Position numbers and translations under genes: made by a program. Of a DNA stretch of 34,867 bases, positions 12,427 through 34,442 are shown piece after piece (positions within the stretch are counted from its first letter, which is position 1; every line of letters starts with the position of its first letter). The DNA comes from a virus. Lineage: Duplodnaviria > Heunggongvirae > Uroviricota > Caudoviricetes. A model generated the notes under the pieces. The model saw nothing but the letters and a program-made list of their open reading frames with translations. It did not search any database and was not told the origin of the DNA. The stretch lies in the IMG/VR virus record IMGVR_UViG_2684622580_000006. One strand, 5' to 3'.

Positions 12427-13041
12427 ATGTACAAAAGAACTATCAACAACGTAACTTACAAAACCCGTTCTGAACTGGATACTGAGCCAACCGGATTCAG
12501 CGTTTATAAAACCGTTTTCAGTATCAACAATGAATCATTCGTTTATTACGGCAAACAAGCTTTCAACGGTCAGCCTGATATGTCGTATATCGGTTCTGGT
12601 CGCAGAGTTCAGGAAAAACTCGCTGAAATGACCGAGTCAGATATCGTTTATAAAATCGTTCTACAGAATTTTGAATCAGAACAAGAAGCGTATGACTTCG
12701 AATCTGAATGCATTCAATCAGCACGCAAATCGAAGGTTAATATTTTAAATATATCTAAAGGAAACTCCGGTGGTAAGGTCTTTGACAAAATGACAGAAGA
12801 ACAAATTAAACAACGTAACGCGAAAATCTCTATGAGCATGATGGGTCACGAAGTCTCTGATGAAACTCGTCGTAAAATCTCAGAAGCGAAATCTGGTCAG
12901 ACTCGCTCTGATAATACGAAACAAAAAATCGGTGATGCTCTGCACGGTCGCAAAACTGGACCTAAATCAGAAGAAACCAAACGCAGAATGTCAGAAGCAC
13001 ATAAAGCACGTCACGCTAACAAGGAGACAGCGAATGTCTAA
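12427..13041 (+). CDS. Free-standing GIY-YIG homing endonuclease with NUMOD3 repeats (T4 Seg-like / I-TevI-like)
   Basis: 204 aa. GFSVYKTVFSINNESFVYYGKQ is GIY-x11-YIG. Three NUMOD3-type repeats are present (SDETRRKISEAKSG, TKQKIGDALHGRK, SEETKRRMSEAHK). Confidence 0.85.
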   Translation: MYKRTINNVTYKTRSELDTEPTGFSVYKTVFSINNESFVYYGKQAFNGQPDMSYIGSGRRVQEKLAEMTESDIVYKIVLQNFESEQEAYDFESECIQSARKSKVNILNISKGNSGGKVFDKMTEEQIKQRNAKISMSMMGHEVSDETRRKISEAKSGQTRSDNTKQKIGDALHGRKTGPKSEETKRRMSEAHKARHANKETANV

Positions 13042-18053: not shown

Positions 18054-20030
18054 ATGCTAAAACTAAAACGCGATTTCGAAGCCCAAGAAATTAAAATTAC
18101 TGATGATAGTTATGAAATTGCGTTCTCAAGTGAAACTCCTGTTGAACGTCAAATTCTCGATAGTTACGGTCAACCAATAACAGTTAATGAAATTCTTTTG
18201 CATGACGGTCCTCAAAATGCTGACCTCGAGCGAATCAATAACGGCGCTGCTCTGTTGTTTAACCATAATTTCGACAATCATCTAGGCGTTGTAATTCCCG
18301 GGTCTGTAAGAATCGATAATGACCGTAAAGGTCGCGCTGTTGTTAAATTCAGTAAAGTTGGTCAATTAGCTAACGAAATTAAATCAAAAATCGACGAAGG
18401 AACAATTTCTAAAATTTCTTTCGGCTACGACATTATTGAATATGAACTCAAAGGAGACGACTTGTTAGTTTCTCGTTGGAGTCCGTATGAAATTTCTTTC
18501 GTTACTGTTCCTGCTGACGACAAAGTTGGCTTGGGAAGACTTCTAAATACAGATGACAAAACAATTAACGTTGAAGGAAAAAGAATGAATTTTGGTGAAA
18601 TCACTCTCGAAGAACTTCAAACACTTTCTCGCGAACAACTTGCGGAAATGAATGTTGAAGAAATTGAAGCGATGCCAGAAGAACTTCGTTTGAAGCGTGA
18701 AGAACTATTAGCGGAAGAAGCTGATATTCAGGATATCAAAGAAGAAGTTCAAGAAGCATCCGAAGAACAGACTGTTCCAGAAAAACAGGAACAAGAAGTA
18801 CAGAAAACCGAAGCTGAAATTGAGGCTGAAAAAGCTGCTGAAATGGAAGCGCTAAATAAAGAAAAAGAACGAGTTGAAGAAATCGAAGATATTTCGGTTC
18901 GATACAAAGTTCCTTACGAAAAAACGAAATCTGCTATTGAAGACAAAATGTCTGTTTCTGATTTCAAACGCTCTATTAAACCTAATAACGCTCCTACGGT
19001 GGTAAGAAAAATGACTAAAGATACTCAAATTGAACTTGAAAACAAATTTAATCTGGCTAACGCAATGCGCGCAATTGCTGACGGTAAAGCACTGACTGGT
19101 GCAGAAGCTGAATATACTCAAGAAATGATTTCTAAACGTCAGAAAGCTGGTCGCGGTATCGTTTCTAACGGTCTGTATCTGCCTCTGTCAGTTCTGAAAG
19201 GCAAACGCGCTATTAACACTGTCCCGACTGTTTCCGCGATTCAGCAAGTTGAACAGCGTTATGACAGCTTTGTTGAAATGCTGCTTGCTCCGACTGTTCT
19301 AGGTCGTATGGGTGTTAACTTCCTGACTGGTCTGAATACTCCGATTTCTGTGCCTAAGCAAACTGCTAGTTCTGTTGATGCTTTCGGTTTCGTTGATGAA
19401 AACGGTGCTTCTCCAGAAGGCGAAAGCAAATTTGCTAACGTTCAGTTCATGCCGAAAACATTTACTGGTGGTAACCCGATTTCTCGTCAAGCGATGCTGA
19501 CTATGCCGAATCTTGAACAGTTTATTTCTGATCATATCGTTAAGCACTCACGCGCTAAACTGGAAGCTCTGATTCTGGGTTCTGCAACTGACGCTAAAGC
19601 TCCTGAATCTCTGGACGCTCAATTGACCGCTACTTCTATGGGCATGACCTATAAAGAATTCGTTAAAGCTGCTGCTAAAGCGAAAGGTAAAGGCGTTGAC
19701 ATGGACAAGTTCATGTATCTGATGGATGCCGAAACTGAAGGTGATCTGAAAACCACTCTGCGTGACGCTGGTGTTGCAGGTTACATCGTAGGTGAAGACA
19801 ACAAACTGGGTGGACACGAAGTTGTTGGTTCCGGTCTGGTTAAAGATGGCACTATCTTTGCTGGTGATTTCTCTGCTCTGACTGTTGCTGAGTGGGAAGG
19901 TATCGGTATTGATATCGACGACACAACTTATCGTAACGCAGGCGCTATCGTTCCTCGTGTTTGGGCTGACATCGACTGGAAAGTTACTGCTGACGACCGT
20001 CTGTTTAAATACGTAAAAACGGGAGCTTAA
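18054..20030 (+). CDS. Fusion of HK97-type prohead protease (S78), acidic coiled-coil scaffold-like linker and HK97-fold major capsid protein
   Basis: 658 aa. N-terminus FSSETPVER...NGAALLFNHN...ISFGY...YEISFVTVPADD is a prohead protease. Residues ~190-290 are an E/K-rich coiled coil. The C-terminal ~350 aa are MCP-like. A strong terminator follows. Confidence 0.8.
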   Translation: MLKLKRDFEAQEIKITDDSYEIAFSSETPVERQILDSYGQPITVNEILLHDGPQNADLERINNGAALLFNHNFDNHLGVVIPGSVRIDNDRKGRAVVKFSKVGQLANEIKSKIDEGTISKISFGYDIIEYELKGDDLLVSRWSPYEISFVTVPADDKVGLGRLLNTDDKTINVEGKRMNFGEITLEELQTLSREQLAEMNVEEIEAMPEELRLKREELLAEEADIQDIKEEVQEASEEQTVPEKQEQEVQKTEAEIEAEKAAEMEALNKEKERVEEIEDISVRYKVPYEKTKSAIEDKMSVSDFKRSIKPNNAPTVVRKMTKDTQIELENKFNLANAMRAIADGKALTGAEAEYTQEMISKRQKAGRGIVSNGLYLPLSVLKGKRAINTVPTVSAIQQVEQRYDSFVEMLLAPTVLGRMGVNFLTGLNTPISVPKQTASSVDAFGFVDENGASPEGESKFANVQFMPKTFTGGNPISRQAMLTMPNLEQFISDHIVKHSRAKLEALILGSATDAKAPESLDAQLTATSMGMTYKEFVKAAAKAKGKGVDMDKFMYLMDAETEGDLKTTLRDAGVAGYIVGEDNKLGGHEVVGSGLVKDGTIFAGDFSALTVAEWEGIGIDIDDTTYRNAGAIVPRVWADIDWKVTADDRLFKYVKTGA

Positions 20031-20102
20031 TTAACACAGGAGAACAAGCTTCTCCTGCTAAAGTTAAAAAGCCACGTGCTCTTAAGGTGAAATAAAAACG
20101 AA

Positions 20103-20126
20103 GGACTCCGAAAGGGGTCCTTTTTT
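20103..20126 (+). terminator. Intrinsic terminator GGACTCC-gaaa-GGGGTCC + T6
   Basis: 7-bp stem (one G-U), GNRA-type loop, T-run; downstream of the capsid gene. Confidence 0.85.
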
Positions 20127-20161: not shown

Positions 20162-20458
20162 ATGATTTTCCCATATACAGAAAAACAAAAACAGTCTTTC
20201 TTAACTCGTTTCGGTCAAAAAATTAAAATCAACGATAAAGACGCTCTCGGCATTGTTGAGATTGAAATTAATAACGATAACGGACAAGTAAGCGAGACAC
20301 TTTATATAACCGCTGATATTAATTCAATTAAGCAAGACGATTCTATTTTGTTAAACGAGATTTTGTATAACGTCGCTTATCTGACAAACGATGGTTCAGG
20401 ACTCGTGAATTGTTATCTTGCTTATAAAACTGAACAGGAGACCTCATTCTATGATTAA
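20162..20458 (+). CDS. Head-tail connector/adaptor candidate (98 aa)
   Basis: Position after the capsid gene, SD aaaggaga; no motif recognised. Confidence 0.35.
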   Translation: MIFPYTEKQKQSFLTRFGQKIKINDKDALGIVEIEINNDNGQVSETLYITADINSIKQDDSILLNEILYNVAYLTNDGSGLVNCYLAYKTEQETSFYD

Positions 20459-20849
20459 TATGCCACGCTTGGGAATTAAACGAGCACTGGAAGAAATAAT
20501 TGTAAAAGAGCTAAAACTGAAATACGTAAAAAATGCTTTTACAACTGGAGTTACAGAAACAGTTCAAGTGATGATTCCAGAAATGACAGAAGAATACACA
20601 AGAATTAATCTTCAATCGAAGCTATCAGCCGTTTTGAATATTACGATTAACGTTTTCTCTGAGAAAAAAGAAACAGACGTTCACAAAGCTGTTTACGACC
20701 TGATTTCTATTAAAGCTGATGATCCGAAACTTCGAGAATTTAAAATCAATAAAATTTATCCGAGTTCGAGTTTTACCGATTACGACGGTGAAGCATCAAA
20801 TGGTCATGTTAGCGCACAAGTAATTTTAACTTTCGAATACATAATGTGA
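20451..20849 (+). CDS. Head-closure / tail-completion candidate (132 aa)
   Basis: ATG 20451 with aggag SD, overlapping the upstream stop (ATGATTAA). The track start 20418 is unlikely. Confidence 0.35.
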   Translation: MINMPRLGIKRALEEIIVKELKLKYVKNAFTTGVTETVQVMIPEMTEEYTRINLQSKLSAVLNITINVFSEKKETDVHKAVYDLISIKADDPKLREFKINKIYPSSSFTDYDGEASNGHVSAQVILTFEYIM

Positions 20850-20856
20850 GGCAGAA

Positions 20857-21885
20857 ATGACAAATGATATTTTTGTAGGAAATAACGTAAGAGTTTCAGT
20901 AAACCCAGAAGTCGTTGAACAACCCGGCTATCACGACCCAGGATATATTTCAACTGCTAATCTTGCTGCTTTTCCTGTTATCGGTTTCAAGAAAGATGTC
21001 CAATCGCTAGAAGACTTTCGCGATGACTTTACGGTTAAATTATCCGGTGACGTAACAGTTAATGACACTTTTATAAGTCTTTTTGAAACTTCTGATGACC
21101 CAGTTTATCAGTTGCTTGATGAAGCGTTAATGGAAAAGAAACTAATCAGATTCAGAAACCTTTATGTTATCGATGGTGAATCGAAAAAAGAAAATGAATC
21201 CGGTCTGTATCATATTTTCAACGCTTGGGTAACTAAGAAAGAAACAACAGGCTCCGAAAACTCAGTTGTTACTACCACTTTTAATCTTTCTCCTGATGGT
21301 CAGATTTTCACTGGCTTTGCTGAATTCACTGCTCCGTTAAACGTTGGTGATTATGGCGTTGGTGCTGGTACAGAAGAAATCGAAGGTGTTAAAGATTTAG
21401 GTCTGTTGAGTGGTAATAGATGGGTAACAGTTGACGCAACGAACAGCGATAACCCTTATAACTCTGGCACGTCTGCTATGGCTATTCAGCATCCTGATGG
21501 ACAAGGTTGGGAGCTTATTGGTTCGTCAGTCGGTAATCCAAGTATCAGAATCAGAAATAAACAAATTGCACACGACGAATCTGTTACAGAATCTCCGTGG
21601 GTGAAAGTCTATACAGAACTTGAACGCCCTACTCCTGAAGATATTAACGCATTGCCAATTACTGGTGGAACTCTGAAAGGTTCACTTGTTATTGAGGAAT
21701 ATCTAACAGTACGTAAAAAGATTTCTGCTCCGCAAGGTGAAATTCTGGCTCTAAATAGTAATGAAATTAACTCAACTTCTGTAAAGGTCAAAGGCTCAGA
21801 AGTCTATTCTCCAAGTAACAAACCAACACCATTAGAGATTAATTGTGTAGCGTTAGGAGAAACTTTAGATGCAGGAGTTTTTTAA
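20857..21885 (+). CDS. Tail-tube-fold N-domain fused to a fibre-like C-terminal region (342 aa)
   Basis: The N-terminal ~160 aa align by eye with the 159-aa tube-like protein at 24791 (DIFVGNNVRVSVN vs DIFAGSYVSVFYN; AFPVIGF vs AFPSTGI). The C-terminus has LPITGGTLKGSL, a motif common in tail fibres. Confidence 0.5.
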   Translation: MTNDIFVGNNVRVSVNPEVVEQPGYHDPGYISTANLAAFPVIGFKKDVQSLEDFRDDFTVKLSGDVTVNDTFISLFETSDDPVYQLLDEALMEKKLIRFRNLYVIDGESKKENESGLYHIFNAWVTKKETTGSENSVVTTTFNLSPDGQIFTGFAEFTAPLNVGDYGVGAGTEEIEGVKDLGLLSGNRWVTVDATNSDNPYNSGTSAMAIQHPDGQGWELIGSSVGNPSIRIRNKQIAHDESVTESPWVKVYTELERPTPEDINALPITGGTLKGSLVIEEYLTVRKKISAPQGEILALNSNEINSTSVKVKGSEVYSPSNKPTPLEINCVALGETLDAGVF

Positions 21886-21897
21886 CGGATAAAGAAA

Positions 21898-24729
21898 ATG
21901 GCAAATAACAAAGTTAAACATTATAGAACAGACGTCGCCGGAAGAAAGCCAGAAGCAAAAAACATGCTTGATGGTGAAATCGCTATTAACTTAGCCGATC
22001 GAAAGATTTTCACTAAATTCGGTGACGCTGTTATTAACATCGGTAATGGTGCCGACGCTGTTGTTGAAGGTAGTCAGACCTTTACTGGCAAAATTAAAGC
22101 AAGTGATATTGAATCCGATTCGAATCTGACTTTAAAAAATCTTGATAAAAGCGATATTGTTTTTGCTGATGAACACGGTAAAGCAAAAGCACGTATTAGT
22201 TCTCCTGCTCAGACAGACTCTAAAGGTGAACTTCGTGTTACGGTAGCGAAAGGAAAAGCTACAGGAGAGAGTTCTGACTTCGTGCTTAACGGTAATGGTC
22301 AGTTATCTTTGCCTGCTGCTCCTGTTGCTCCTGATAGCGCTACGCGTAAAGATTACGTTGATTCTGAAATCAGCAAAGTTCAAACAGGTTCAAGTGCTGA
22401 CCTGACGAAACTCGAACAGAAAGTTGATGCTAACGACGCTGCTATTAACACTCGCGTTGATAATCTGAATTCAAAAGTTGACCAGAACGACACGGCTATT
22501 AATACGAAAGTTGATGCGAATAAAGCTGATGCTGACGAAAAGATTAAAGCAGTTAATGACCGTTTGACTGTTGATAATCAGACTCTGAAAGACATGATTG
22601 ACACCAAAGTTAATAAAGCTGGCGACACGATGACTGGCGACTTAACTGTTCCTAAGTTAAATGCTACTGACATTAGAACCACAAAGATGCTCGTTACAAC
22701 TAATCCTGTTGAAGCTAACGCTCTTGGTGATAACTCTATTGCTATGGGTGATGGTGATACAGGTCTGAAATGGCAATCTGATGGCAAATTGCAATCATGG
22801 TCGAATAATATTCCTGTAACAGAACTTGATAAGTCTGAAATCAAATTTAATAGAAACGCAACCTTTCGTTTCAGAAGCGATAACGGTGAAATTGACTTGA
22901 TGACTCCTGATGGTATGAGTCTTGTTAAAATTGATACTACGAAAGACGGTAATAACACTGGCGATTCTATCAGTTATCTGGGACTTGTTAACTCAGGAAA
23001 ATATAATCACTATCTGAGAGGCACAGGCAGAACTTATATTGATACTCACGAAGGTCTCGGTGTTGCTGGTCCTACAAGTTTCTATCAGACTATTTTTAAC
23101 AACAAAGGACACGGAAGCTACGATAGTGAATCATTGCCTATTTGGACTGATGCTGGATTTCAGACAAATCATCTTCGTAAACTTAGAGCTAGAGACGCCG
23201 CTACAATTTTTCATGAAGCTGTTGTTGGTGATCATGAAGATCCTAGAGCTAGACAATCGATAAGTTGGTGGCATGGCAATGGTCCTGAAACTTTCATTGC
23301 CTCGATGCAACAGGATGGAACAATTAACGCATATCGTTTTAATACGTCGGCTGAATATGAAGCGATTAATCTAAAAACGAAAAATCGCGAAGCTGCATAT
23401 ATTAGAGGCACAGACGGTGACAAAACCTCATGGTTATTTGGTCGTTTGAATCCCGGTGATAACAGGTTAATTGCTCGTTCTACTATCGACCAAGACGGAA
23501 GTTCTACTGTTGACTTGGAGTTGGATTCAGGAAGCAAATACTTCGGTGTTAATGTTGGTGGGAATAGAATTGCAAGATTTCATGAAAAGAATATTATTAT
23601 CGACGGAAGAAAATGGGCTGCAGACAATAGTCACGCGTGGGCAGACCAATGGAATCAACTTCCTCCTGTTGCTATAGAATTTGGTGCTGTTCCTGCTGCG
23701 AGTGATTATTATCCTGGTTATGCGTTACAAAGTAGCTCTGTTGGTTTTGGTTATTCAACTCGATTCGAACTTGGTATGATTCGTGCTCCTGCTGATCAAT
23801 TCGGTAAAGGTATTCTTCGTGTAGGAACATATGAAGAAGGTGCGTCGAAGAGAATGGCGAATTACGAGTTTGATATTGACGGAAGATTCGCAGTTCCTGG
23901 TAAAATTAATACTCCTTACGTGGAAACCGATCGTTTAACAAGCTTTGGTGTTCATACTAATAACTTGCTTGGTGGAAACTCTATTGCTTTCGGTGACCAA
24001 GATACGGGTATTCGTCAAAGATTCGACGGAAACTTAGAGATTATTACAGATTCGCTTCATCTGGCTACGTTTAATCCTTCAGGCTTAACTATTAATGATC
24101 GTATGATTTCAGTTAACGCTCCCAATAATTCTCGCGGTATTTACGTTGGAAATGTGAGAACTGGTAATGCTAATGCGATGATTCAAGGTCAAGTCGATGG
24201 ATGGGCTGATTGGGGTGCATGGCGTGATCGTCCTGCGGGAATGACCGTTGAAGCTCCTACTCGTTCGAAATGTATTAATATCTGGAAACATGTTCACTGG
24301 GGCACTGAATGGGGCGCTGCGATGGACGTTTATAATCCCGACGGTGCAGGTCCTGAAGCCCAATTACACGTTGGTGGTGCAAACTATCATTTCAGCGGTA
24401 ACGGAACAGCAAACGCCATTTCTTGGGTTAGCACTTCTGATAAACGTCTGAAATCAAATTTTGAAGAAATTGAAAACGCGGTTGATAAAGTCGAGAAACT
24501 TACTGGTTACGTATACGATAAGAAATCTGATTTAGTCGAAACTGAATATTCATTCGAAGTTCGTGAAGCAGGTATTATCGCTCAAGAATTGCAAGAGGTT
24601 CTTCCAGAAGCTGTTAGTTCTTTCGGACCTGACAAAATTCTTGGTGTTAACTCTGCTGCTGTAAACGCGTTGTTGGTTAATGCTATCAAGGAATTAAGTG
24701 CTCGCGTTAAAGAACTTGAAGCTAAATAA
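21898..24729 (+). CDS. Long tail fibre with C-terminal S74 intramolecular chaperone (auto-cleaving) domain
   Basis: 943 aa. N-terminus GEIAINLADRKIFTK, coiled-coil VDxNDxAINTxVD repeats, GDTMTGDL. C-terminus SDKRLKSNFEEIENAVDKVEKLTGYVYDKK...EAGIIAQELQEVLPEAV...LVNAIKEL is an endosialidase/T5 pb1-type chaperone domain (from about 24436). Confidence 0.85.
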   Translation: MANNKVKHYRTDVAGRKPEAKNMLDGEIAINLADRKIFTKFGDAVINIGNGADAVVEGSQTFTGKIKASDIESDSNLTLKNLDKSDIVFADEHGKAKARISSPAQTDSKGELRVTVAKGKATGESSDFVLNGNGQLSLPAAPVAPDSATRKDYVDSEISKVQTGSSADLTKLEQKVDANDAAINTRVDNLNSKVDQNDTAINTKVDANKADADEKIKAVNDRLTVDNQTLKDMIDTKVNKAGDTMTGDLTVPKLNATDIRTTKMLVTTNPVEANALGDNSIAMGDGDTGLKWQSDGKLQSWSNNIPVTELDKSEIKFNRNATFRFRSDNGEIDLMTPDGMSLVKIDTTKDGNNTGDSISYLGLVNSGKYNHYLRGTGRTYIDTHEGLGVAGPTSFYQTIFNNKGHGSYDSESLPIWTDAGFQTNHLRKLRARDAATIFHEAVVGDHEDPRARQSISWWHGNGPETFIASMQQDGTINAYRFNTSAEYEAINLKTKNREAAYIRGTDGDKTSWLFGRLNPGDNRLIARSTIDQDGSSTVDLELDSGSKYFGVNVGGNRIARFHEKNIIIDGRKWAADNSHAWADQWNQLPPVAIEFGAVPAASDYYPGYALQSSSVGFGYSTRFELGMIRAPADQFGKGILRVGTYEEGASKRMANYEFDIDGRFAVPGKINTPYVETDRLTSFGVHTNNLLGGNSIAFGDQDTGIRQRFDGNLEIITDSLHLATFNPSGLTINDRMISVNAPNNSRGIYVGNVRTGNANAMIQGQVDGWADWGAWRDRPAGMTVEAPTRSKCINIWKHVHWGTEWGAAMDVYNPDGAGPEAQLHVGGANYHFSGNGTANAISWVSTSDKRLKSNFEEIENAVDKVEKLTGYVYDKKSDLVETEYSFEVREAGIIAQELQEVLPEAVSSFGPDKILGVNSAAVNALLVNAIKELSARVKELEAK

Positions 24730-24790
24730 CGAAAATGGGAGAAATCCCCTTTGCTAAATAAACTATATTAACTCAAATAGGAAATTAAAA

Positions 24791-25270
24791 ATGGCAGACA
24801 AATTTGATATTTTTGCTGGCTCTTACGTCAGTGTGTTCTATAACTCAGAAATCACAAACACTGATATTAATTCAGAAAAGTTTGTTGAAATTCCTGAAAC
24901 TGGTGCATTCCCTTCTACGGGTATTGAGCGAGAAGTTATTACAGCTCCTAACTTCTCTCACAAATATTCCCGTAAACTGGTTGGTCGTGGCTCTGTTCCT
25001 GATATCGACTTGACTGTTAACTATATTCCAGAAAGCGTTCATGATGTTCTGATTAAGCTTGCGGAAGATGGCAAACGTGGTCAGTTCAAAATCGTTTATT
25101 GGGTCGATGCTTCTAAAGATCTGGGTGTTGCAAAAGTCTATAACGGCTTCTTGTCAAGCGCTGTTCACAATGGTGGAGAATCAGAAGTTTCTGGTCTGAC
25201 TCTGACTCTTTCTGTTGACGGTGGTCCAGTTGCTTCAGGCGTTATCGATACAACTACTCCTACTCCGTAA
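24791..25270 (+). CDS. Major tail tube protein candidate (159 aa)
   Basis: Size, position, a strong terminator right after it (typical of abundantly expressed structural genes), and paralogy with the N-domain of the 20857 product. Confidence 0.5.
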   Translation: MADKFDIFAGSYVSVFYNSEITNTDINSEKFVEIPETGAFPSTGIEREVITAPNFSHKYSRKLVGRGSVPDIDLTVNYIPESVHDVLIKLAEDGKRGQFKIVYWVDASKDLGVAKVYNGFLSSAVHNGGESEVSGLTLTLSVDGGPVASGVIDTTTPTP

Positions 25271-25287
25271 TATCGAAGTTGAACGAA

Positions 25288-25311
25288 GGACTCCTTGTGA
25301 GTCCTTTTTTT
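25288..25311 (+). terminator. Intrinsic terminator GGACTC-cttgt-GAGTCC + T7
   Basis: Perfect 6-bp stem (8 bp with flanking aa/tt) and a T-run. Shares the cgaaggactcc prefix with the terminator at 20103. Confidence 0.85.
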
Positions 25312-25338
25312 GGCTCTAAATAAAGTCAGAGGTGAAAC

Positions 25339-25755
25339 ATGTTTAAATTTCAAGCTGACTTATCAAAATTACTGAATCGATATATCAACAAAGAACATCA
25401 ATTCGGTCAAAACGACTGTAATATCCTTGTTGCTGAATATATCGACCTTGTTTGTGTTACTGAATACACAGACAAATTAAAAGACAAATATACGAGTATT
25501 CCTGAAGGTCTCAAGATTTGCAAAAAACTCACTGGTTTTAACAACGTTCTCGAAGCTTGTGAAAATCATCTTGAGAAATCAGAAAAGATAGAAACTGGCT
25601 CGGTTATCTTAATTAAGAAAAAACATAAAAACCGTGTCTATTACGTTGCGTCCATCGTTTTCAATAATCAAGCATTAGTTGAACACGAAAACAAATACAA
25701 ACTAGTGAACGTCAACGATTTTAACTTTGAATTAATTTTTAACAGGAGAAAATAA
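25339..25755 (+). CDS. Small tail-tip-associated protein, possibly NlpC/P60-like (gpK / GTA g14 position)
   Basis: 138 aa, TAATG-coupled to the J-like gene, with the Cys motif [11 protein letters not shown]. Assignment rests mainly on position. Confidence 0.3.
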
Positions 25756-28700
25756 TGGCCATTGCTGCTATTGGTGCAATTATTGCGGGTGCTTCCGCTG
25801 CTGCTGCTGCATATGCCGCTGGTGCTGCAATTGCTGTTGCTATCGGTATTGGTGTTGCTGTTGCTGCTGTTTCGGGATTAATGTCCTATTCGATGAAAGA
25901 ATCTGTTCCTCGATTTAATAGCGCAGACACTGCAACGACATTAGGAACAACGTCTGACCCTGCAAGCGTAATTCCTATTATCTACGGCGAACAACGCACA
26001 GGGACAATTAACGTTTGGAAAGCTGTTGGTGTCGATACGACTTATCTGGTGCAAGTCTTTGCAATCTGTGAAGGAGAAGTTGATAGCTTCAAAAACCTGT
26101 ATATGGATAATCAGAAAATCTTACTTGATGGAACTTACAGAGATGGAATTTTAGATAAAGGCTCTATCGCTGCCGAATATCAGAATTTCGTTGAAATTGA
26201 ATTCTCAACTGGTAAACCATACGGTCACGTTTTCACGCTTGCTCAAAAATATCTGGGTAATGATGTTGCTGGTTGGCCTGATTCTGCAACTGGTAATGGT
26301 ATCGCTTCTGTGTGTGTTGTTATGCGCAAACGTAACACAGACTTAGAAAACCAAGCTGATATTCTGCAACCTAACAGTCAAGTAGCTGTTGACGTTAGAG
26401 GACGTTTGATTACAGACCTGAACACAGGAGGCATCGTCCCTTCAAACAATGGTCCTAGTCAAGCAGTCGATTATCTGACGAACGAACGTTACGGTCTGGG
26501 TATTCCACTTGATAAAATCAATCTTGATAGTTTCAAGCAATGTGCAGAACACGCAAAACTGAACAGTCTGTTTTCTAACGGTGCAACTGACCCGAATGGT
26601 TCATTCAAAGAAAACTTAACTCAGATTGCAGGTGCTTTTAACGGTATTATCACTGAATCTTTCGGACTGGTTACTTGCGTTATCGATGGTCCTGGTGTTG
26701 TTCAATATGATTTCAACGAAGATAATATTAATGCTGGAACTGTTAGCTTGAATGATGGCGGAACAGAGAATTACTACAATACTCTGAACGTGAAATATCA
26801 AGATCCTGAAATCGATTATTCTGACCAAGTTCTTCGTTATCCGTCTGACGTAACAAATGATGGAACTATCGCGAAAGACAAACGTATTATCGCAAAAGAT
26901 ATCAGTTACAGATTCGTTAAAGGAAAAGACCAGTTAGACAAAATTGCTTCAATCGAACGAAGCAAATCACTGTTACAACAGGTTATTAGTTTTTCTTCTA
27001 CTGATGCTTATACCGTACAAGTATGGGATATTATCAGAGTTAATTTCGAAGAACTGGAACTGACTGATTCATTATGGCGAGTAACTAACGTTGATCGCAC
27101 GATGGAAAAAGGTGCTGCTGGTATCGTTACTATTACCGCTGCTGAATATATCGAAGAAGTTTATACCGATCTTGACTACGCGAAAGACCCGGATAACTCA
27201 GGAAGTAACATTCCAAACAAAGCTGTTCTTATTCCACCGAAGAATCTGACAGTTAAAGCAGTTGCTGAAACAGCACTCGGAAGAACTTTGAAAGTGCAAT
27301 GGACGTCTGAACCTGATTATAACCGCGCAGGTTATTATATTCAGTATAGTCTTGCTGGCAAGAACTCCTGGACTCAAGCAGGTTTCACATCAGGCGATTA
27401 TTTCTTGATTATGAGTCTTGATCCTAATCAGAAATTTGATATTCGTGTTTGTGCTTCTGGTGTTGTGTATCGTTCAGATTGGGTATATGTGAATAACGTT
27501 AACCCTGATGTTACGTATAACTTACCAAGCGTCACAGGATTACGCCTAGTGAACGCGGTTGAAAATCAGTACACCACTAACAAGACTCAATTTGAATTCG
27601 CTTGGGACGACCAGAGCGCACAGAAATTCTATGTTGACGACACGTTACAGACATTCGGTGAAGTTTTTCAATATTACGAAATTAAACTCGAAGGTCAACG
27701 TCCTGTAATTTGCAAGACTAAAGATTTAGGTTTTGTATATGACTTTAATATGAACTTGGGTAATGGTCTGAGTCGTGAACTGAAAGTTTCTGTTACTGCA
27801 TACGGTCACGCTGGTATGAAATCAGATCCGAGTATTATTACTGTTAAGAACAATCAAGCTCCTGCGATTCAAGGTTTCACAGCTTCTAATGGTCCTGGAA
27901 TGCTGATGTGTTCATGGAATGACCCACGCGATAATATTCCTGAAGTTCCTGACTTCAAAGGCACAATCGTTCATATTGCGAAAGACCAAAGCTTTAATGA
28001 AATTGTCCACGTTTATTCAAGCTCAAGTCCGTTTTTAGACAACTTCCCGTTAGAAGATGGTCAATTCTATGTTCGTGCAGCATGGTATGACGTTTTCGGA
28101 CAAGACCAGATTACTTGGTCACAGGCGACTTATATCGATATGAAATGGGATATTCCATGGAACGACGATATGAAAGACCAGTTGGAAGACTTGTTAGATC
28201 TGAACAACCGAGTTGATGGTGCTATCGATGAAGCGTTGAAACTTGCTAAGGAATATACTGACACCGAGGTTATTGCTTCTGAACAAAAAGTTGTTACCGA
28301 ACTGAATCAGACAATCACAACGAAAAACACCGAACTGTATACACAAATTACAGATGAAACGAATGGCGCTATTAATCAGGCTATTACGATTCAAGAGGCG
28401 AATTTCGATGGAAAACTGAATTCAGCAATCACTAAAGTTGAAAAAACTCAAGCTGATGATAGAGAGGCAACTGCAAGTTCTATTAGCCAACTGAAAGCTG
28501 AAACTGACTCGGCAATTGCAAGTGTTTCAACAGAAGCAAAAGCAAGCGTTGACGAACTGACAGGAACTATTAACAGCAAATGGGCAGTTCAGACTAATGC
28601 CGACGGTGTTGTTGCTGGTATCAGTATGCTCGCTAATAAAAATGCTGACGGTTCGAAATCATCAAGCATTATTTTCAACGCTGATAAAATCGCTATTACG

Positions 28701-29444
28701 AATAACAACACTCCTGAAGGTGCTGTTCCTCCGTTCATGGTTGCAGATAATAAGACTTATCTTCAAGATGCTATGATTCGCGATGCTTCAATCGGTAATG
28801 CGAAAATTGGTTATGCTGCTATTGATACAGCGAAGATTCAAGACGCTGCTATTAACAACGCTAAAATTCAAGATGGTGCTATTACATCAGCGAAGATCGG
28901 TAATGCTCAGATCGGTAATGCTCAGATTGCTTATGAAATATCGTCTGATAACTGGTTCCCTTCCGGTGGTACTCAAGGTTGGACAATCAGAAAAGACGGT
29001 TGGGCTTCTTTCCAAAACGTTAATATCAGAGGTAACATTCAAGCAGATTCTGGTTATTTCGCAGGTGAAATCAGAGGCGGTTCAGGTTATTTCACAGGAA
29101 CTGTATACGCTGACAGAATTGAAGGTGACGTTATCAAAATGGGTCATATAGATCCGTGGACAACAGTTCATATTCCTGCTGTTAACTGGAACAGAGTAAT
29201 TGCTATTCCAAACCTTGCGATTTCAGGCAGAACTTATTCTGGTGGCGCTTGGGGCTACGGAACTGCATGGATTAATATGACGAACGGTCAAGAAATCGTA
29301 AGAACAGTTACCAGTGCAATGAGTGGTTCAAACGGTGGTACGGCTATTATCTATGCGGGACAAGCTGTTGATTTGAGTTACGGTGCTGACTTGAATCATG
29401 CGACCGCAGCAAGAGCAGTTTACTTTATCAGTAAACAACAATAA
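25755..29444 (+). CDS. Central tail fibre / host-specificity protein (lambda J / GTA g15-like) with FN3-like domains
   Basis: 1229 aa. Ala/Gly-rich hydrophobic N-terminus, FN3-like segment ([35 protein letters not shown]...), coiled coil, then IxxAx pentapeptide repeats near the C-terminus. Confidence 0.7.
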
Positions 29445-29488: not shown

Positions 29489-29773
29489 ATGGTCGATATG
29501 GCACTGATCATTTCCATCTTGGGTGCTCTAGGAGGTTTCTTGGCTTGGGTTTATGCCGAAATTAAATCAAACAATGAAAAACGACTTGACCTTGAGAAAC
29601 GTTTCTCAGACATCGAAAAAAGCATTGCCGTTAATGACGCAAAAGATGCTTCGCTTATAAGCGATATAACCAGACAACAGGATGAATTTCGAGAGGTCAA
29701 ATCTGATTTGAAGAATTTAGAAGGAAGGACATCAAAGCTAGACATCGACCTAGCAGTTCTAAGAGGAAAATGA
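29489..29773 (+). CDS. Membrane-anchored coiled-coil protein (94 aa; i-spanin-like or holin-associated)
   Basis: One N-terminal TM helix (ALIISILGALGGFLAWVYA) followed by a coiled coil. ATGA overlap with the next gene. Confidence 0.4.
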   Translation: MVDMALIISILGALGGFLAWVYAEIKSNNEKRLDLEKRFSDIEKSIAVNDAKDASLISDITRQQDEFREVKSDLKNLEGRTSKLDIDLAVLRGK

Positions 29774-30246
29774 AAAGAAAAGAGATTCCGATTTATAAGC
29801 AAGAACTCTTTCAAAAGCAAAAAGGTCTTTGTGCGTTAACAGGCATAAAGATTCACGAAGTTAATAAAGCCCATCTTGACCATGACCATATTTTAACAGG
29901 CTCTAACGCAGGCAGATGCAGAGGATTATTAATCGCTCAAGCAAACGTCCTCGAGGGTAGAATAAAACATCAGTTTAAACGTTCAGGTCTCGATGGGAAA
30001 ATTGACTACATCGAGTTTTTAAAGAATCTTGTTCAGTATCTTGAAAAAGACTACTCAGACAATCCTACGCATCCACAACTTATTCCCGATTTAAAGAAAG
30101 CGTTCTCTCGAAAAAATCTTTCTGAGATGAAAGCTATTACAGGTTCAAACCTTAAAACGAAAAAGGAGCTTGAAAAAGTCTACTCAAACCAAATAAAGGT
30201 GAAATATGAAAATGAAATATCTCCAAGCAATGGCAAAACACGCTAA
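29770..30246 (+). CDS. Endonuclease VII-like (T4 gp49 family) protein, Cys-depleted variant
   Basis: QKGLCALTG...AHLDHDHILTGSNAGRCRGLLIAQANVLEGR matches the Endo VII core (Q.G.C..C...DHDH.TG..RG.LC..CN..G), but three of the four zinc-ligand Cys positions are replaced. Confidence 0.65.
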   Translation: MKRKEIPIYKQELFQKQKGLCALTGIKIHEVNKAHLDHDHILTGSNAGRCRGLLIAQANVLEGRIKHQFKRSGLDGKIDYIEFLKNLVQYLEKDYSDNPTHPQLIPDLKKAFSRKNLSEMKAITGSNLKTKKELEKVYSNQIKVKYENEISPSNGKTR

Positions 30247-31343: not shown

Positions 31344-31652
31344 ATGAATTTCGATGAAATGTTAGCATCATTATCACCAAAACGCGAAGCTGTTGAAATC
31401 AACGGTTATAAATTCTATGCACGTCCGATGACTGTATCCGAGTTTGGTGAATTCTATTTCAAAAATGAAAACACAGAAGAACGTAATGACCGAATGATTC
31501 TGAATTGTATTCAGCACGAAGACGGAACAAGCGTTTTTAAAGAAATCTCTCAAGTTCAGAAACTTTATACAACTGTTCGTTCGCAACTCGCAAGCGCTGT
31601 TTCAAACGCTAGTATTCTGACTAAGGATTCAGACATTCTGGAAAAGAACTAA
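31344..31652 (+). CDS. Tail assembly chaperone (gpG analogue)
   Basis: 102 aa, immediately upstream of the T-like ORF and the tape measure gene; acidic, typical size. Confidence 0.7.
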   Translation: MNFDEMLASLSPKREAVEINGYKFYARPMTVSEFGEFYFKNENTEERNDRMILNCIQHEDGTSVFKEISQVQKLYTTVRSQLASAVSNASILTKDSDILEKN

Positions 31653-31687
31653 GACAGAACTGGGCAAAATCATTTCAGTATCGAACA

Positions 31688-32050
31688 ATGTTACGTCGCG
31701 GATTATCTAACGAAGAAATTCAACAGATGTCCGTAATGATGTATTATGAATTATGGTTTTTCGATTCGTTTATTGAACCACAAAGTCCTGTCTATAACGA
31801 TTTCTATCAAGCTCGATTGATTCACACTATCGAAGCAAATAACCCGAATCTGACCAAAGAGTACAGGAAAAAGTTGAACATGAAAGACCATCAGCTTATT
31901 AAAGATTCTGTGTTTAAGTCTCAAGAAGAAATCGAAAAAGAGAAAGAACAACAGGAGATTAAACGTAAGAAAGCTATTGAATCGATGTTCGACCCAGCTC
32001 TGTTAGATAAAGTTAAACTGAGAAAAACAAAAAAGGTGAATAATGGCTAA
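31688..32050 (+). CDS. Tail assembly chaperone frameshift extension (gpT analogue; likely made as a G-T fusion)
   Basis: This ORF is in the -1 frame relative to 31344-31652, and that frame is open from 31625, overlapping the end of the G-like gene. G GAA AAG lies at 31640-31646. Confidence 0.6.
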   Translation: MLRRGLSNEEIQQMSVMMYYELWFFDSFIEPQSPVYNDFYQARLIHTIEANNPNLTKEYRKKLNMKDHQLIKDSVFKSQEEIEKEKEQQEIKRKKAIESMFDPALLDKVKLRKTKKVNNG

Positions 32051-34442
32051 ATCACGTTATGACGTTGAGATTAACGGAGATAACAAAGGCCTTTCAAAAT
32101 CTATTGATAAGTCTATGGAGCAACTGAACGAACTTGATTCGGTTGCTAATGGACTTTTTAGTAATATGACAGGACCGTTGAATAATCTCAACAGTGGAAT
32201 ATCAGGTATTGCAGGAATGTCCTCGGGTATGCAAGCTCTGGGGATTGCAGGAATGGCAGCAGGTGTAGGTGTCGCCGCTCTTAATACCGCTTTAGAAAAA
32301 ACAAGAGAACTTAATCAGATCTCTACGTCAACTGGACTTTCAGTTGAATATCTGCAACAGCTTCAAAAAGAATTTCGCACTACAGGAATGGAAATTGACC
32401 GATTCGGGGATCTTAACAAAGATACTCTCGACCATCTCGGTGATTCATTCAGAGAAGGCGCAGGTGGTATTGGTGATGACCTTGAAAAATGGGGTATTGG
32501 TCTTGAGCGATACACTCAATATGTTAACGACGCTGAAGGCGGTATTAAAGCACTTGTTCAGACGTATTATGACCTGAAAAAAGCTGGTGCAAGTCAAGCT
32601 GAAATCGTTAACGGAATGGAGTCTATGGCTTCTGACGGTTCTCACTTGATTACTGTTCTTGAAAAATACGGCTCAACTCAAGAAGCATTAAACGCTATCA
32701 ATAACCAATCAGCTAGTATTACAAACGAAACAGCAAGAGAATACCAAGGATTCGATGAAAACATGAAAACGCTTTCGGTGAACTTGGATAATTTAACTGT
32801 TAACGTTATGGGTCCTCTCGTTTCGAAAATGAATAATCTTTATGATATTGCGAATAAAGATTGGACAGCTAGTAATATCCTCGATTTCTTTACTAAGATT
32901 GATAGCTTACGTCCTGATAAGATGTTAGCAGATTGGGCGGCTGACACAGTTGTTGATGCTTACGCAGACGCTAATCCTACTTCTGGCGCAGGTCAACGTA
33001 AACAGCAAAAAGATTATCTTGATACGACAGAACGTTTTCTGAAACAGACCAAAGCTCAAGGCGATAAAGCTTATGAAAAACGTAAGCAAGACGAAATAAC
33101 ACGAGCGAAGTTACAGAAACAGCGTAATGAGAAAGCCGCTGAGGATGCGAAAAAAGAAGCTGATAAAGCTAAACGCGAAGCTGACAGAATAGCAAGAGAG
33201 CAAGAACGCGCTGGGAAAGAAAAGCTACGCTTACAGGAGCAAGCCGCAAGAGAATCTAAAGCTGCTTACGATAAGATGATGCAAGAAAGGGAGACAGCGT
33301 TACAGAGTCTTTCCAGTCTTGATGCTGCAATTCTGAGTCAAGAAGGTCGCACGATTTCAAATCAGGTTAGTCAAGTTCAACAGGCTATTAAAACTATCTC
33401 AGAACTTGAGAAAAAAGGAATTATCTCCGCTGAACAGGCTAAGCAACGTCGAAACATGCTGTTTAAAACATCTAATGCAGAATTTAAACAGACTCTTATG
33501 ACGAGTCCTGAAGAAATTGGAGCAATCACGACAAGTCTTGAAGTTGTATATCAGCAACAGCTTGAACAACTCGAAGCGAAGAAAGCCCAGTCGTTAATCA
33601 GTCAGCAAGAATACAACACACAGGTTGAAGCATTACAGCAAGACCATCAGTCACGTCTTGAAGCTATTAAAGCAACGAGCGGTGACGGTAATATGGCTAA
33701 TATGAAAAATCTCAGTGCGTTGGGTTTTGCAACTGACGAAGAACAGATGGCTATTCAACAAGCCGCGTTAGATGAACAATTTCAGAAAATGCGTGAACAG
33801 AACCAGAAATTATATGATGGTCAGTTAATCAATCACGAGCAATTCCTGCAACAGAAAGCACGTCTTGACCAAGCGTATGCCGCGAAGTCGAAACAAATTA
33901 CTTTCTTGGAAACTCAGACGAAACTCCAGATGTATAACGGGTTGGCTTCTGGTATGGGTTCAATAATCGCTGGTATCGCAGGTGAAAGTTCGGACGCTGC
34001 TCAAGCTGTATTTGCTATTCAGAAAGGAACAGCAATCGCAAGCGGTATGTTAAACGCTTATGAATCCGCGACTGCTGCAATGGCTAAATATCCTGGTCCT
34101 ATGGGTTACGCTATGGCTGCTTCAAGCTATGCGCGTGTTATCGGACAAGTCTTGCAGATGAAATCAGTGAATATTACTGGTATGGCTCACGATGGTATTT
34201 CAGAAGTGCCAAGAGAAGGGACATGGTTGCTTGATGGTGGCGAACGTGTTGTTGATGAACGCACTAACGGCGACTTAAAAGAATTCTTAGACAATAACAA
34301 AATAGGAGAAGCAACAAAAATCGATGCAAGTATTCACGTAAATGGAAATGTTACTGATCAGCGTTGGTTTGCTGAACAATTAAAACGTCAGCAACAGAAC
34401 ATCGCGGCTATTGTGCAAGACTGCAACAGACGCAAGATGTAA
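32043..34442 (+). CDS. Tape measure protein
   Basis: 799 aa after the chaperone pair. Long Q/E/K/A-rich helical core and Gly/Ala/Met-rich hydrophobic segments (GIAGMSSGMQALGIAGMAAGVGVAAL; GLASGMGSIIAGIAG). Confidence 0.85.
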   Translation: MAKSRYDVEINGDNKGLSKSIDKSMEQLNELDSVANGLFSNMTGPLNNLNSGISGIAGMSSGMQALGIAGMAAGVGVAALNTALEKTRELNQISTSTGLSVEYLQQLQKEFRTTGMEIDRFGDLNKDTLDHLGDSFREGAGGIGDDLEKWGIGLERYTQYVNDAEGGIKALVQTYYDLKKAGASQAEIVNGMESMASDGSHLITVLEKYGSTQEALNAINNQSASITNETAREYQGFDENMKTLSVNLDNLTVNVMGPLVSKMNNLYDIANKDWTASNILDFFTKIDSLRPDKMLADWAADTVVDAYADANPTSGAGQRKQQKDYLDTTERFLKQTKAQGDKAYEKRKQDEITRAKLQKQRNEKAAEDAKKEADKAKREADRIAREQERAGKEKLRLQEQAARESKAAYDKMMQERETALQSLSSLDAAILSQEGRTISNQVSQVQQAIKTISELEKKGIISAEQAKQRRNMLFKTSNAEFKQTLMTSPEEIGAITTSLEVVYQQQLEQLEAKKAQSLISQQEYNTQVEALQQDHQSRLEAIKATSGDGNMANMKNLSALGFATDEEQMAIQQAALDEQFQKMREQNQKLYDGQLINHEQFLQQKARLDQAYAAKSKQITFLETQTKLQMYNGLASGMGSIIAGIAGESSDAAQAVFAIQKGTAIASGMLNAYESATAAMAKYPGPMGYAMAASSYARVIGQVLQMKSVNITGMAHDGISEVPREGTWLLDGGERVVDERTNGDLKEFLDNNKIGEATKIDASIHVNGNVTDQRWFAEQLKRQQQNIAAIVQDCNRRKM

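Follow-up and report, generated by a model that had tools for sequence, protein, structure and literature searches.

A diverged duplicate of the tail tube protein as the proposed anchor of a two-piece side tail fibre in an Escherichia coli prophage

The stretch of DNA analyzed here (34,867 nucleotides; IMG/VR record IMGVR_UViG_2684622580_000006, Caudoviricetes), which in its whole length we call the window, is a ~35-kb prophage residing in the ybiT-ldtB interval of the E. coli chromosome, with a serine recombinase at its left end. Its structural genes run from a lambda-type terminase through a portal, a fused prohead-protease/capsid and proteins of 98, 143, 342, 943 and 159 residues to DUF6950 and a J-like protein. 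Our main finding concerns the 342-residue protein. Comparison across its family shows it to be a conserved, selected fibre component with a tube-duplicate N-terminus, and we propose, with a probability of roughly 60%, that in a two-piece side tail fibre it serves as the virion-proximal anchor, held by a hexameric ring of tube-fold domains that would lie in the line of the tube at its distal end. The open reading frames (ORFs) of 342, 943 and 159 residues are all on the plus strand, at the coordinates given in an initial annotation of the window. They and their parts are as follows:

20857–21885, plus strand: putative side-fibre anchor or proximal adaptor, 342 residues (from the ORF; PGAP name 'hypothetical protein')
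20857–21327, plus strand: tube-fold domain of the anchor, residues 1–157, paralog of the 159-residue tube protein
21328–21672, plus strand: linker and conserved beta-rich middle domain of the anchor, residues 158–272, with a near-invariant GD(Y/F)G(V/I)GAG motif
21673–21885, plus strand: variable fibre segment and conserved C-terminal connector (...VYSPSNKPTPLEINCVALGETLDAGVF) of the anchor, the tail being conserved in all split anchors and the region matching tail-fibre PHROGs
21898–24729, plus strand: distal side fibre, 943 residues (PHROG 1699 'long tail fiber distal subunit', E 8e-114, residues 10–389)
24436–24615, plus strand: Peptidase_S74 intramolecular chaperone domain, fibre residues 847–906 (Pfam PF13884, E 4.2e-15, 56.2 bits against a cut-off of 22)
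24791–25270, plus strand: major tail tube protein, 159 residues (PHROG 158 and gene order in relatives)

The initial annotation had aligned the first ~160 residues of the 342-residue protein by eye with the 159-residue tube candidate, and had named profile–profile alignment and structure prediction as checks, both of which were run. The resemblance is significant. BLASTP aligns residues 4–160 of the 342-residue protein with residues 6–157 of the 159-residue protein at 24% identity (E 5e-10), and hhalign of the two family alignments, built from 22 members per family, spans 153 columns with a probability of 99.5% and an E value of 1.1e-22. When the family hidden Markov models were searched against all six-frame ORFs of the window, each retrieved only the other ORF (E 4e-18 and 9e-22; next best 0.006). 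Both proteins also align with the same part of the PHROG 158 profile ('major tail protein'), the 159-residue protein at E 2.5e-14 and the 342-residue protein at E 0.004. The two sequence blocks that had been picked out by eye are present in both, DIFVG at residue 4 and AFP at residue 38 of the 342-residue protein, DIFAG at residue 6 and AFP at residue 39 of the 159-residue protein. In the predicted structures the tube-fold domain has the tail-tube fold, a beta-sandwich with a flanking helix and a long loop, and the fold is found in both paralogs. A fold search of BFVD returned ordinary tube proteins, including major tail proteins with FN3 domains, and no entry that clearly has the same two-domain architecture. 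A neighbour-joining tree places the tube proteins in a single clade, separate from all anchors, with subclades that correspond on both sides, which argues for one old duplication followed by co-divergence. By these alignments and profile matches, residues 1 to ~157 of the 342-residue protein are shown to have arisen by duplication of this phage's major tail tube protein and to have diverged since.

Positions conserved in both families cluster in the N-terminal arm (DIFxG), at FP 39–40 and in the long loop (KLxG 61–64), and this shared conservation presumably marks the stacking interface of tube rings. It is from these residues, together with the precedent of p140 in phage T5, that we infer a ring in the line of the tube. 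As ring formation is only inferred, the domain might instead attach, as a monomer or trimer, to the outer surface of the tube or tip, or act in assembly only, and the side fibres of F-type pyocins do attach in an unexpected way, by OB domains that grip the shaft of the central fibre (PMC13455828). Without ring stacking, however, it is difficult to see why the arm and long-loop residues should be common to anchor and tube, and the two proteins show parallel divergence throughout the lineage; we regard such an off-axis role as very unlikely.

We assign the role of true tube protein to the 159-residue protein and not to the 342-residue protein, because of its profile matches, its position before the chaperones and tape measure, and a hairpin that it shares with the capsid gene. 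Besides PHROG 158, the 159-residue protein matches Pfam PF16461 at 14.5 bits, below the cut-off of 26.1; remoter members of its family do reach this model and are named 'phage tail tube protein'. Most relatives have the canonical order, with the gene for the orthologue of the 159-residue protein followed directly by two chaperone genes, then the tape measure gene and those for the distal tail protein, the hub attachment protein, DUF6950 and J, and a gene of the 342-residue family is never found directly upstream of the chaperones and tape measure. The 159-residue protein would build the remainder of the tube. The hairpin is located as follows:

25285–25307, plus strand: terminator-like hairpin 3' of the tube gene, near-identical to a hairpin 3' of the capsid gene (20100–20123)

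Both copies read GAAGGACTCC...GTCCTTT followed by a T run, and the unit between them holds the genes for the 98-, 143-, 342-, 943- and 159-residue proteins. Capsid and tube proteins are the two most abundant proteins of a virion, and here the genes for both end in near-identical hairpins.

What follows the tube-fold domain looks like the beginning of a fibre. The best-conserved part of the 342-residue family is residues 158–272, with invariant columns from G164 to P258; in the predicted model residues 158–178 have a predicted local distance difference test score (pLDDT) below 50 and residues 189–251 form beta strands. Profile positions ~210–274 recur as repeats in many long tail fibres. The family, with lengths of 341–589 residues, occurs only in prophages of Enterobacterales. 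The 56 close homologues, all from this order and 222–589 residues long, keep residues 1–272, vary in the next segment and keep the last residues again (...DFGxF). A conserved N-terminus with a variable C-terminus is the pattern usual for fibre proteins. Against a relative of 87% identity, the ratio of nonsynonymous to synonymous substitution rates is 0.17, 0.16 and 0.11 across three parts of the gene, and these sequence comparisons show the gene to be under purifying selection. The exact protein sequence of the window occurs in 178 contigs, where it is named 'hypothetical'. That its C-terminal half is fibre-like, as the initial annotation held, is borne out by matches to tail-fibre PHROGs at E 3e-6 to 7e-3. 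The motif on which that idea had been based, GGT[LM]xGxL, carries less: GGTLKGSL at residue 270 of the 342-residue protein and GDTMTGDL at residue 242 of the 943-residue fibre are both there, but the motif is statistically not meaningful alone. A direct similarity between the two proteins was rejected, as the best BLASTP E value between them is 0.86 and GGT.xGxL is a common fibre motif.

Evidence that the tube-fold domain belongs to a fibre comes from relatives in which anchor and fibre are one polypeptide. An exhaustive profile search with residues 1–272 against 1.84 billion representatives gave 214 relatives, among which more than 100 clusters are proteins of ~600–1,500 residues that match tube and middle domains together over their first ~230 residues. 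The same search also retrieved stand-alone tube proteins of ~150 residues, at E 1e-13 to 1e-10. Nine long relatives were sampled: Peptidase_S74 stands at the end of five, a gp36 domain was found in one and a phage tail C-terminal domain in another. Judged by this domain content, the long relatives are complete fibres that have the tube and middle module as their N-terminus, and their public names include 'tail fiber protein', 'pyocin knob domain-containing protein' and 'hypothetical'. In their loci (Rahnella, Pluralibacter and others) a single fibre gene comes after the neck genes and immediately before the tube gene; five such loci have the same gene order. The order anchor, fibre, tube is held in every related locus long enough for both genes, across Enterobacterales, and anchor and tube occur together even in loci reached via the remotest tube homologues. 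A simple gene fission between the one-piece and split forms was ruled out, since the one-piece relatives contain no internal gp37-type junction motif; the two forms would rather be module swaps on a constant anchor. Queried by tblastn with a one-piece relative, the anchor and the tube protein, ~50,700 phage records gave a match in 'Escherichia phage DCP80' alone, within its first 25 kb. This record (GenBank PQ671644.1, matching positions 1–25716) is labelled Straboviridae and is 141 kb long, and its first ~25 kb are a lambda-like siphophage structural module syntenic with the prophage, which suggests a chimeric assembly.

In the split form, the joint between the two pieces has a constant signature on both sides. 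The 27 distinct split loci have anchors of 277–699 residues, all of which end in ...(K/R)P(T/S)..(D/E)....(I/L)D(F/L/A)Gx(F/Y/L), and in all 27 the gene 3' of the anchor begins with a T4 gp37-type N-terminus carrying the motif K.YR....G.KP....L.GE.AINL.D.K.FTK. The Pfam model Phage_T4_gp36 (PF03903) is matched by two of 22 anchor-family members (E 3.8e-22), in the variable C-terminal region. That the 943-residue protein is the side fibre follows from the presence of a central fibre, the J-like protein of 1,229 residues, in the same window. The suggestion that a paralog of the tube serves as a docking device for the side fibre gains independent comparative support, from the more than 100 clusters with the module, the joints of the 27 split loci and the co-occurrence of anchor and tube. 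In the window the 342- and 943-residue ORFs are in the same frame (21883–21898), separated by a stop codon and four further codons (TAA CGG ATA AAG AAA ATG). Readthrough of the stop codon would join them, which we consider unlikely. In a hand count from coordinates, the two ORFs share a frame in roughly half of the related split loci, among them seven of eight in the window's own subclade.

The connector also bears on a further possibility, that the 342-residue protein is a minor tube subunit that co-polymerises with the 159-residue protein along the tube, so that fibre stubs decorate the shaft as the Ig-like domain of lambda gpV or the FN3 domain of SPP1 gp17.1* does. The fold is the same, the presumed stacking elements are conserved, and C-terminal decoration domains are common in tube proteins, as the BFVD matches with FN3 domains illustrate. 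We nevertheless consider this quite unlikely: an identity of 24% after an old duplication suggests a specialised and not an interchangeable subunit, the strong conservation of the middle domain suggests that its contacts form a single fixed set, and a dedicated connector for a trimeric fibre of ~940 residues needs three neighbouring chains and would crowd the shaft.

In the assembly that we favour, six tube-fold domains would form one specialised ring stacked in line with the ordinary tube rings, most probably, by analogy with T5 p140, at the tail's distal end and adjoining the distal tail protein. The middle domain (residues 158–272) would leave the ring and begin a trimeric fibre shaft, so that the six chains could give two trimeric fibres. 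The C-terminal connector of the anchor (...KPTP...DAGVF) would then bind the gp37-like N-terminus of the 943-residue fibre, which would supply the receptor-binding end and the self-cleaving S74 chaperone.

Gene order permits another position for the ring, since the anchor gene is preceded by two small genes:

20162–20849, plus strand: two small presumed neck proteins, 98 and 143 residues, immediately 5' of the anchor gene

The 98-residue protein weakly matches PHROG 82 (head closure) and Pfam Phage_attach, the 143-residue protein has no informative match, and the position of both genes is kept in relatives. The ring could thus be head-proximal, under a tail terminator or in its place, with the 943-residue fibres hanging from the neck like collars or whiskers. 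An anchor gene right after two neck-type genes and before the tube gene sits where tail terminator genes usually are, and no terminator was recognised by sequence, the 143-residue protein lacking an informative match. Yet the domain is most closely related to the tube protein of the same phage and not to a terminator, the usual pair of neck proteins is already provided by the 98- and 143-residue proteins, the side-fibre anchors of T5, Ur-lambda, monocin and F-pyocin are all at the tail tip, and a gp37-type receptor-binding fibre would be of more use near the tip. A neck position is therefore unlikely in our judgement.

Several observations weigh against a distal, ring-forming fibre anchor. A head-proximal position fits the gene order equally well, because the anchor gene adjoins the neck genes and not that of the distal tail protein. 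To feed trimeric fibres, a hexamer would need a 6-to-3 symmetry solution, which is assumed here. The 342-residue protein has no Pfam match at E ≤ 0.1 and, like the 943-residue fibre and the tube protein, no NCBIfam match; its match to the gp36-type PHROG 1425 is weak (E 0.007), and its family profile found nothing at E ≤ 1 among all chains of the Protein Data Bank. The monomer models of the two paralogs are moderate in confidence (mean pLDDT 69.5 and 63.2), the fold of the middle domain (residues 158–272) could not be matched separately, and the one-piece relatives lack the internal gp37-type junction motif.

The remaining tail genes of the window are rearranged relative to the canonical order:

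4215–5437, minus strand: candidate distal tail protein (191 residues) and hub attachment protein (215 residues); Pfam PF09931 at 28 bits against a cut-off of 26, and a weak pb9 B-domain match
25755–29444, plus strand: central tail fibre, lambda J-like, 1,229 residues; Pfam Phage_Tail_Tip, E 2e-24, and PHROG 31 'central tail fiber J', E 5e-59
31344–34442, plus strand: tail assembly chaperones (102 and 120 residues) and tape measure (799 residues); PHROG 344 and PHROG 13674 (E 2e-72)

Orthologues of the 191- and 215-residue proteins come after the tape measure in canonical relatives. In the window, the block of chaperones and tape measure has moved to the far right, and the pair of distal tail protein and hub genes is inverted at the far left beside the serine recombinase. 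DUF6950 and J directly follow the tube gene (25270–25339), an order that the window shares with its closest subclade (E. coli, Enterobacter and several IMG/VR prophage contigs). This rearranged order is not an assembly artefact, as the subclade has diversified since the change; a search for repeats at the junctions of the rearranged genes gave nothing convincing. The J-like fibre starts with a stretch of ~45 hydrophobic residues rich in Ala, Gly and Ile (25755–25890, plus strand), which from its composition may be a membrane-active segment fused to J. An endonuclease VII gene (29770–30246, plus strand) lies within the tail gene cluster and, in some relatives, just 5' of the terminase gene; a NUMOD3-domain gene (12427–13041, plus strand) is found upstream of the terminase. 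The protease-capsid gene is intact in the window (18054–20030) and split by an IS3 element in strain 2017.06.05CC (NZ_AP027790.1, 18156–19384), and strain L3Cip3 likewise has an IS3 family transposase in the corresponding region; in E. coli EN-1077 and E-93 the annotation shows an intact capsid gene. A TIR-domain protein of 298 residues (6597–7493, plus strand) matches the PADLOC candidate defence system PDC-S35 (E 1e-70). Sequence searches with the 143-residue protein and a 180-residue protein gave nothing useful.

How side fibres are fixed on non-contractile tails has been solved for few systems, and the 342-residue family suggests another solution, a tube duplicate fused to a fibre. It gives a proposed function to proteins that are mostly 'hypothetical' in public records, and it illustrates clearly how a structural protein can duplicate and then gain a new role. 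The conserved anchor (residues 1–272) and the connector would be the parts to keep when receptor-binding parts are swapped to retarget phages or tailocin-like particles.

The solved attachments on non-contractile tails, listed in a 2026 paper, differ from one another. In monocin the fibre is held by a loop of the distal tail protein, and in Ur-lambda by the fibre's own Ig-like dodecameric collar; in T5 a separate Ig-like collar surrounds a tube-like ring, and in F-pyocin OB domains sit on the shaft of the central fibre (PMC13455828; PMC12617516). The closest parallel is T5, where p140, a duplicate of the tube protein, makes a ring that separates the last tube ring from the distal tail protein and bears the p132 fibre collar (PMC10038345). 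The initial annotation had likened the 342-residue protein to the T5 collar, and the analogy is closer than it claimed, p140 itself being a tube-protein duplicate under the collar (PMC10038345). Of the docking collar that it proposed, the tube-paralog fibre anchor is supported; a true collar is less likely, since the tube-fold ring would lie in line like p140 and not be wrapped round the tube like p132. As in T5, a tube-protein duplicate would be devoted to fibre anchoring in the present prophage. In T5, the duplicate is separate and undecorated and the Ig-like p132 collar holds the L-shaped fibre pb1, whereas in the present system the duplicate forms a single covalent chain with the fibre or with the fibre's adaptor. 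T5 p140 has two tube domains and forms trimers; the 342-residue protein has one, and a hexamer is expected. No sequence relationship between the 342-residue protein and p140 was detected, so that the likeness is one of analogy. There is no gene for a p132-like Ig collar between the neck and tube genes, and no tail-region protein has a collar-type match in Pfam or PHROG. The 342-residue system is thus not a member of the T5-type collar family with a separate p132 dodecamer.

Other known systems share single features with this one. The side tail fibre (Stf) of Ur-lambda is alike in that the fibre's own N-terminal region makes the fixing ring at the junction of tube and distal tail protein, with no separate anchor (PMC12617516). 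Unlike the Ig-like N-terminal domains of Ur-lambda Stf, the 342-residue protein's N-terminal domain has the tube fold, and would join the tube stack itself. Nor does the 342-residue protein have the identity of a distal tail protein: its gene is never just after the tape measure, a place held by the 191-residue candidate in canonical relatives. The additional tube-like rings at the tips of tails, such as T4 gp54, T4 gp48 and distal tail proteins, are none of them fused to a fibre. The fibre itself recalls gp36 and gp37 of T4, where a short proximal piece is joined end-to-end with a long distal receptor-binding piece. T4 gp36 is linked via gp35 and gp34 to the baseplate of a contractile tail. 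Here, the gp36-like role would be fused to a tube-fold domain on a non-contractile tail, and the 342-residue protein of the window falls below the Pfam gp36 model. The decorated tube proteins of lambda (gpV, Ig-like) and SPP1 (gp17.1*, FN3) also combine a tube-fold N-terminal domain with an outward C-terminal extension. They are, however, the major tube subunit or its frameshift variant and place a small globular domain on every ring, whereas the 342-residue protein is a separate, strongly diverged paralog with a fibre connector, encoded beside a plain tube protein.

A literature search, incomplete in its coverage, found no description of a tube-like fibre anchor. A tube-fold domain fused to a fibre is none of the solved attachment modes; it is predicted here and is present in no solved structure. 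Somewhat short of an even chance, in our estimate, is the fuller picture of a siphophage lineage in which one tube-duplicate ring is inserted in the tail tube and the fibre grows directly from that ring. If so, one polypeptide would cover the T5 roles of p140, p132 and the N-terminus of pb1, a sixfold ring would have to be converted into trimeric fibres, most simply as two fibres per virion, and non-contractile tails would have a fifth, structurally distinct way of attaching side fibres. In its principle, the 342-residue system extends what is known from T5, where a tube duplicate serves to anchor fibres, and is not a new category.

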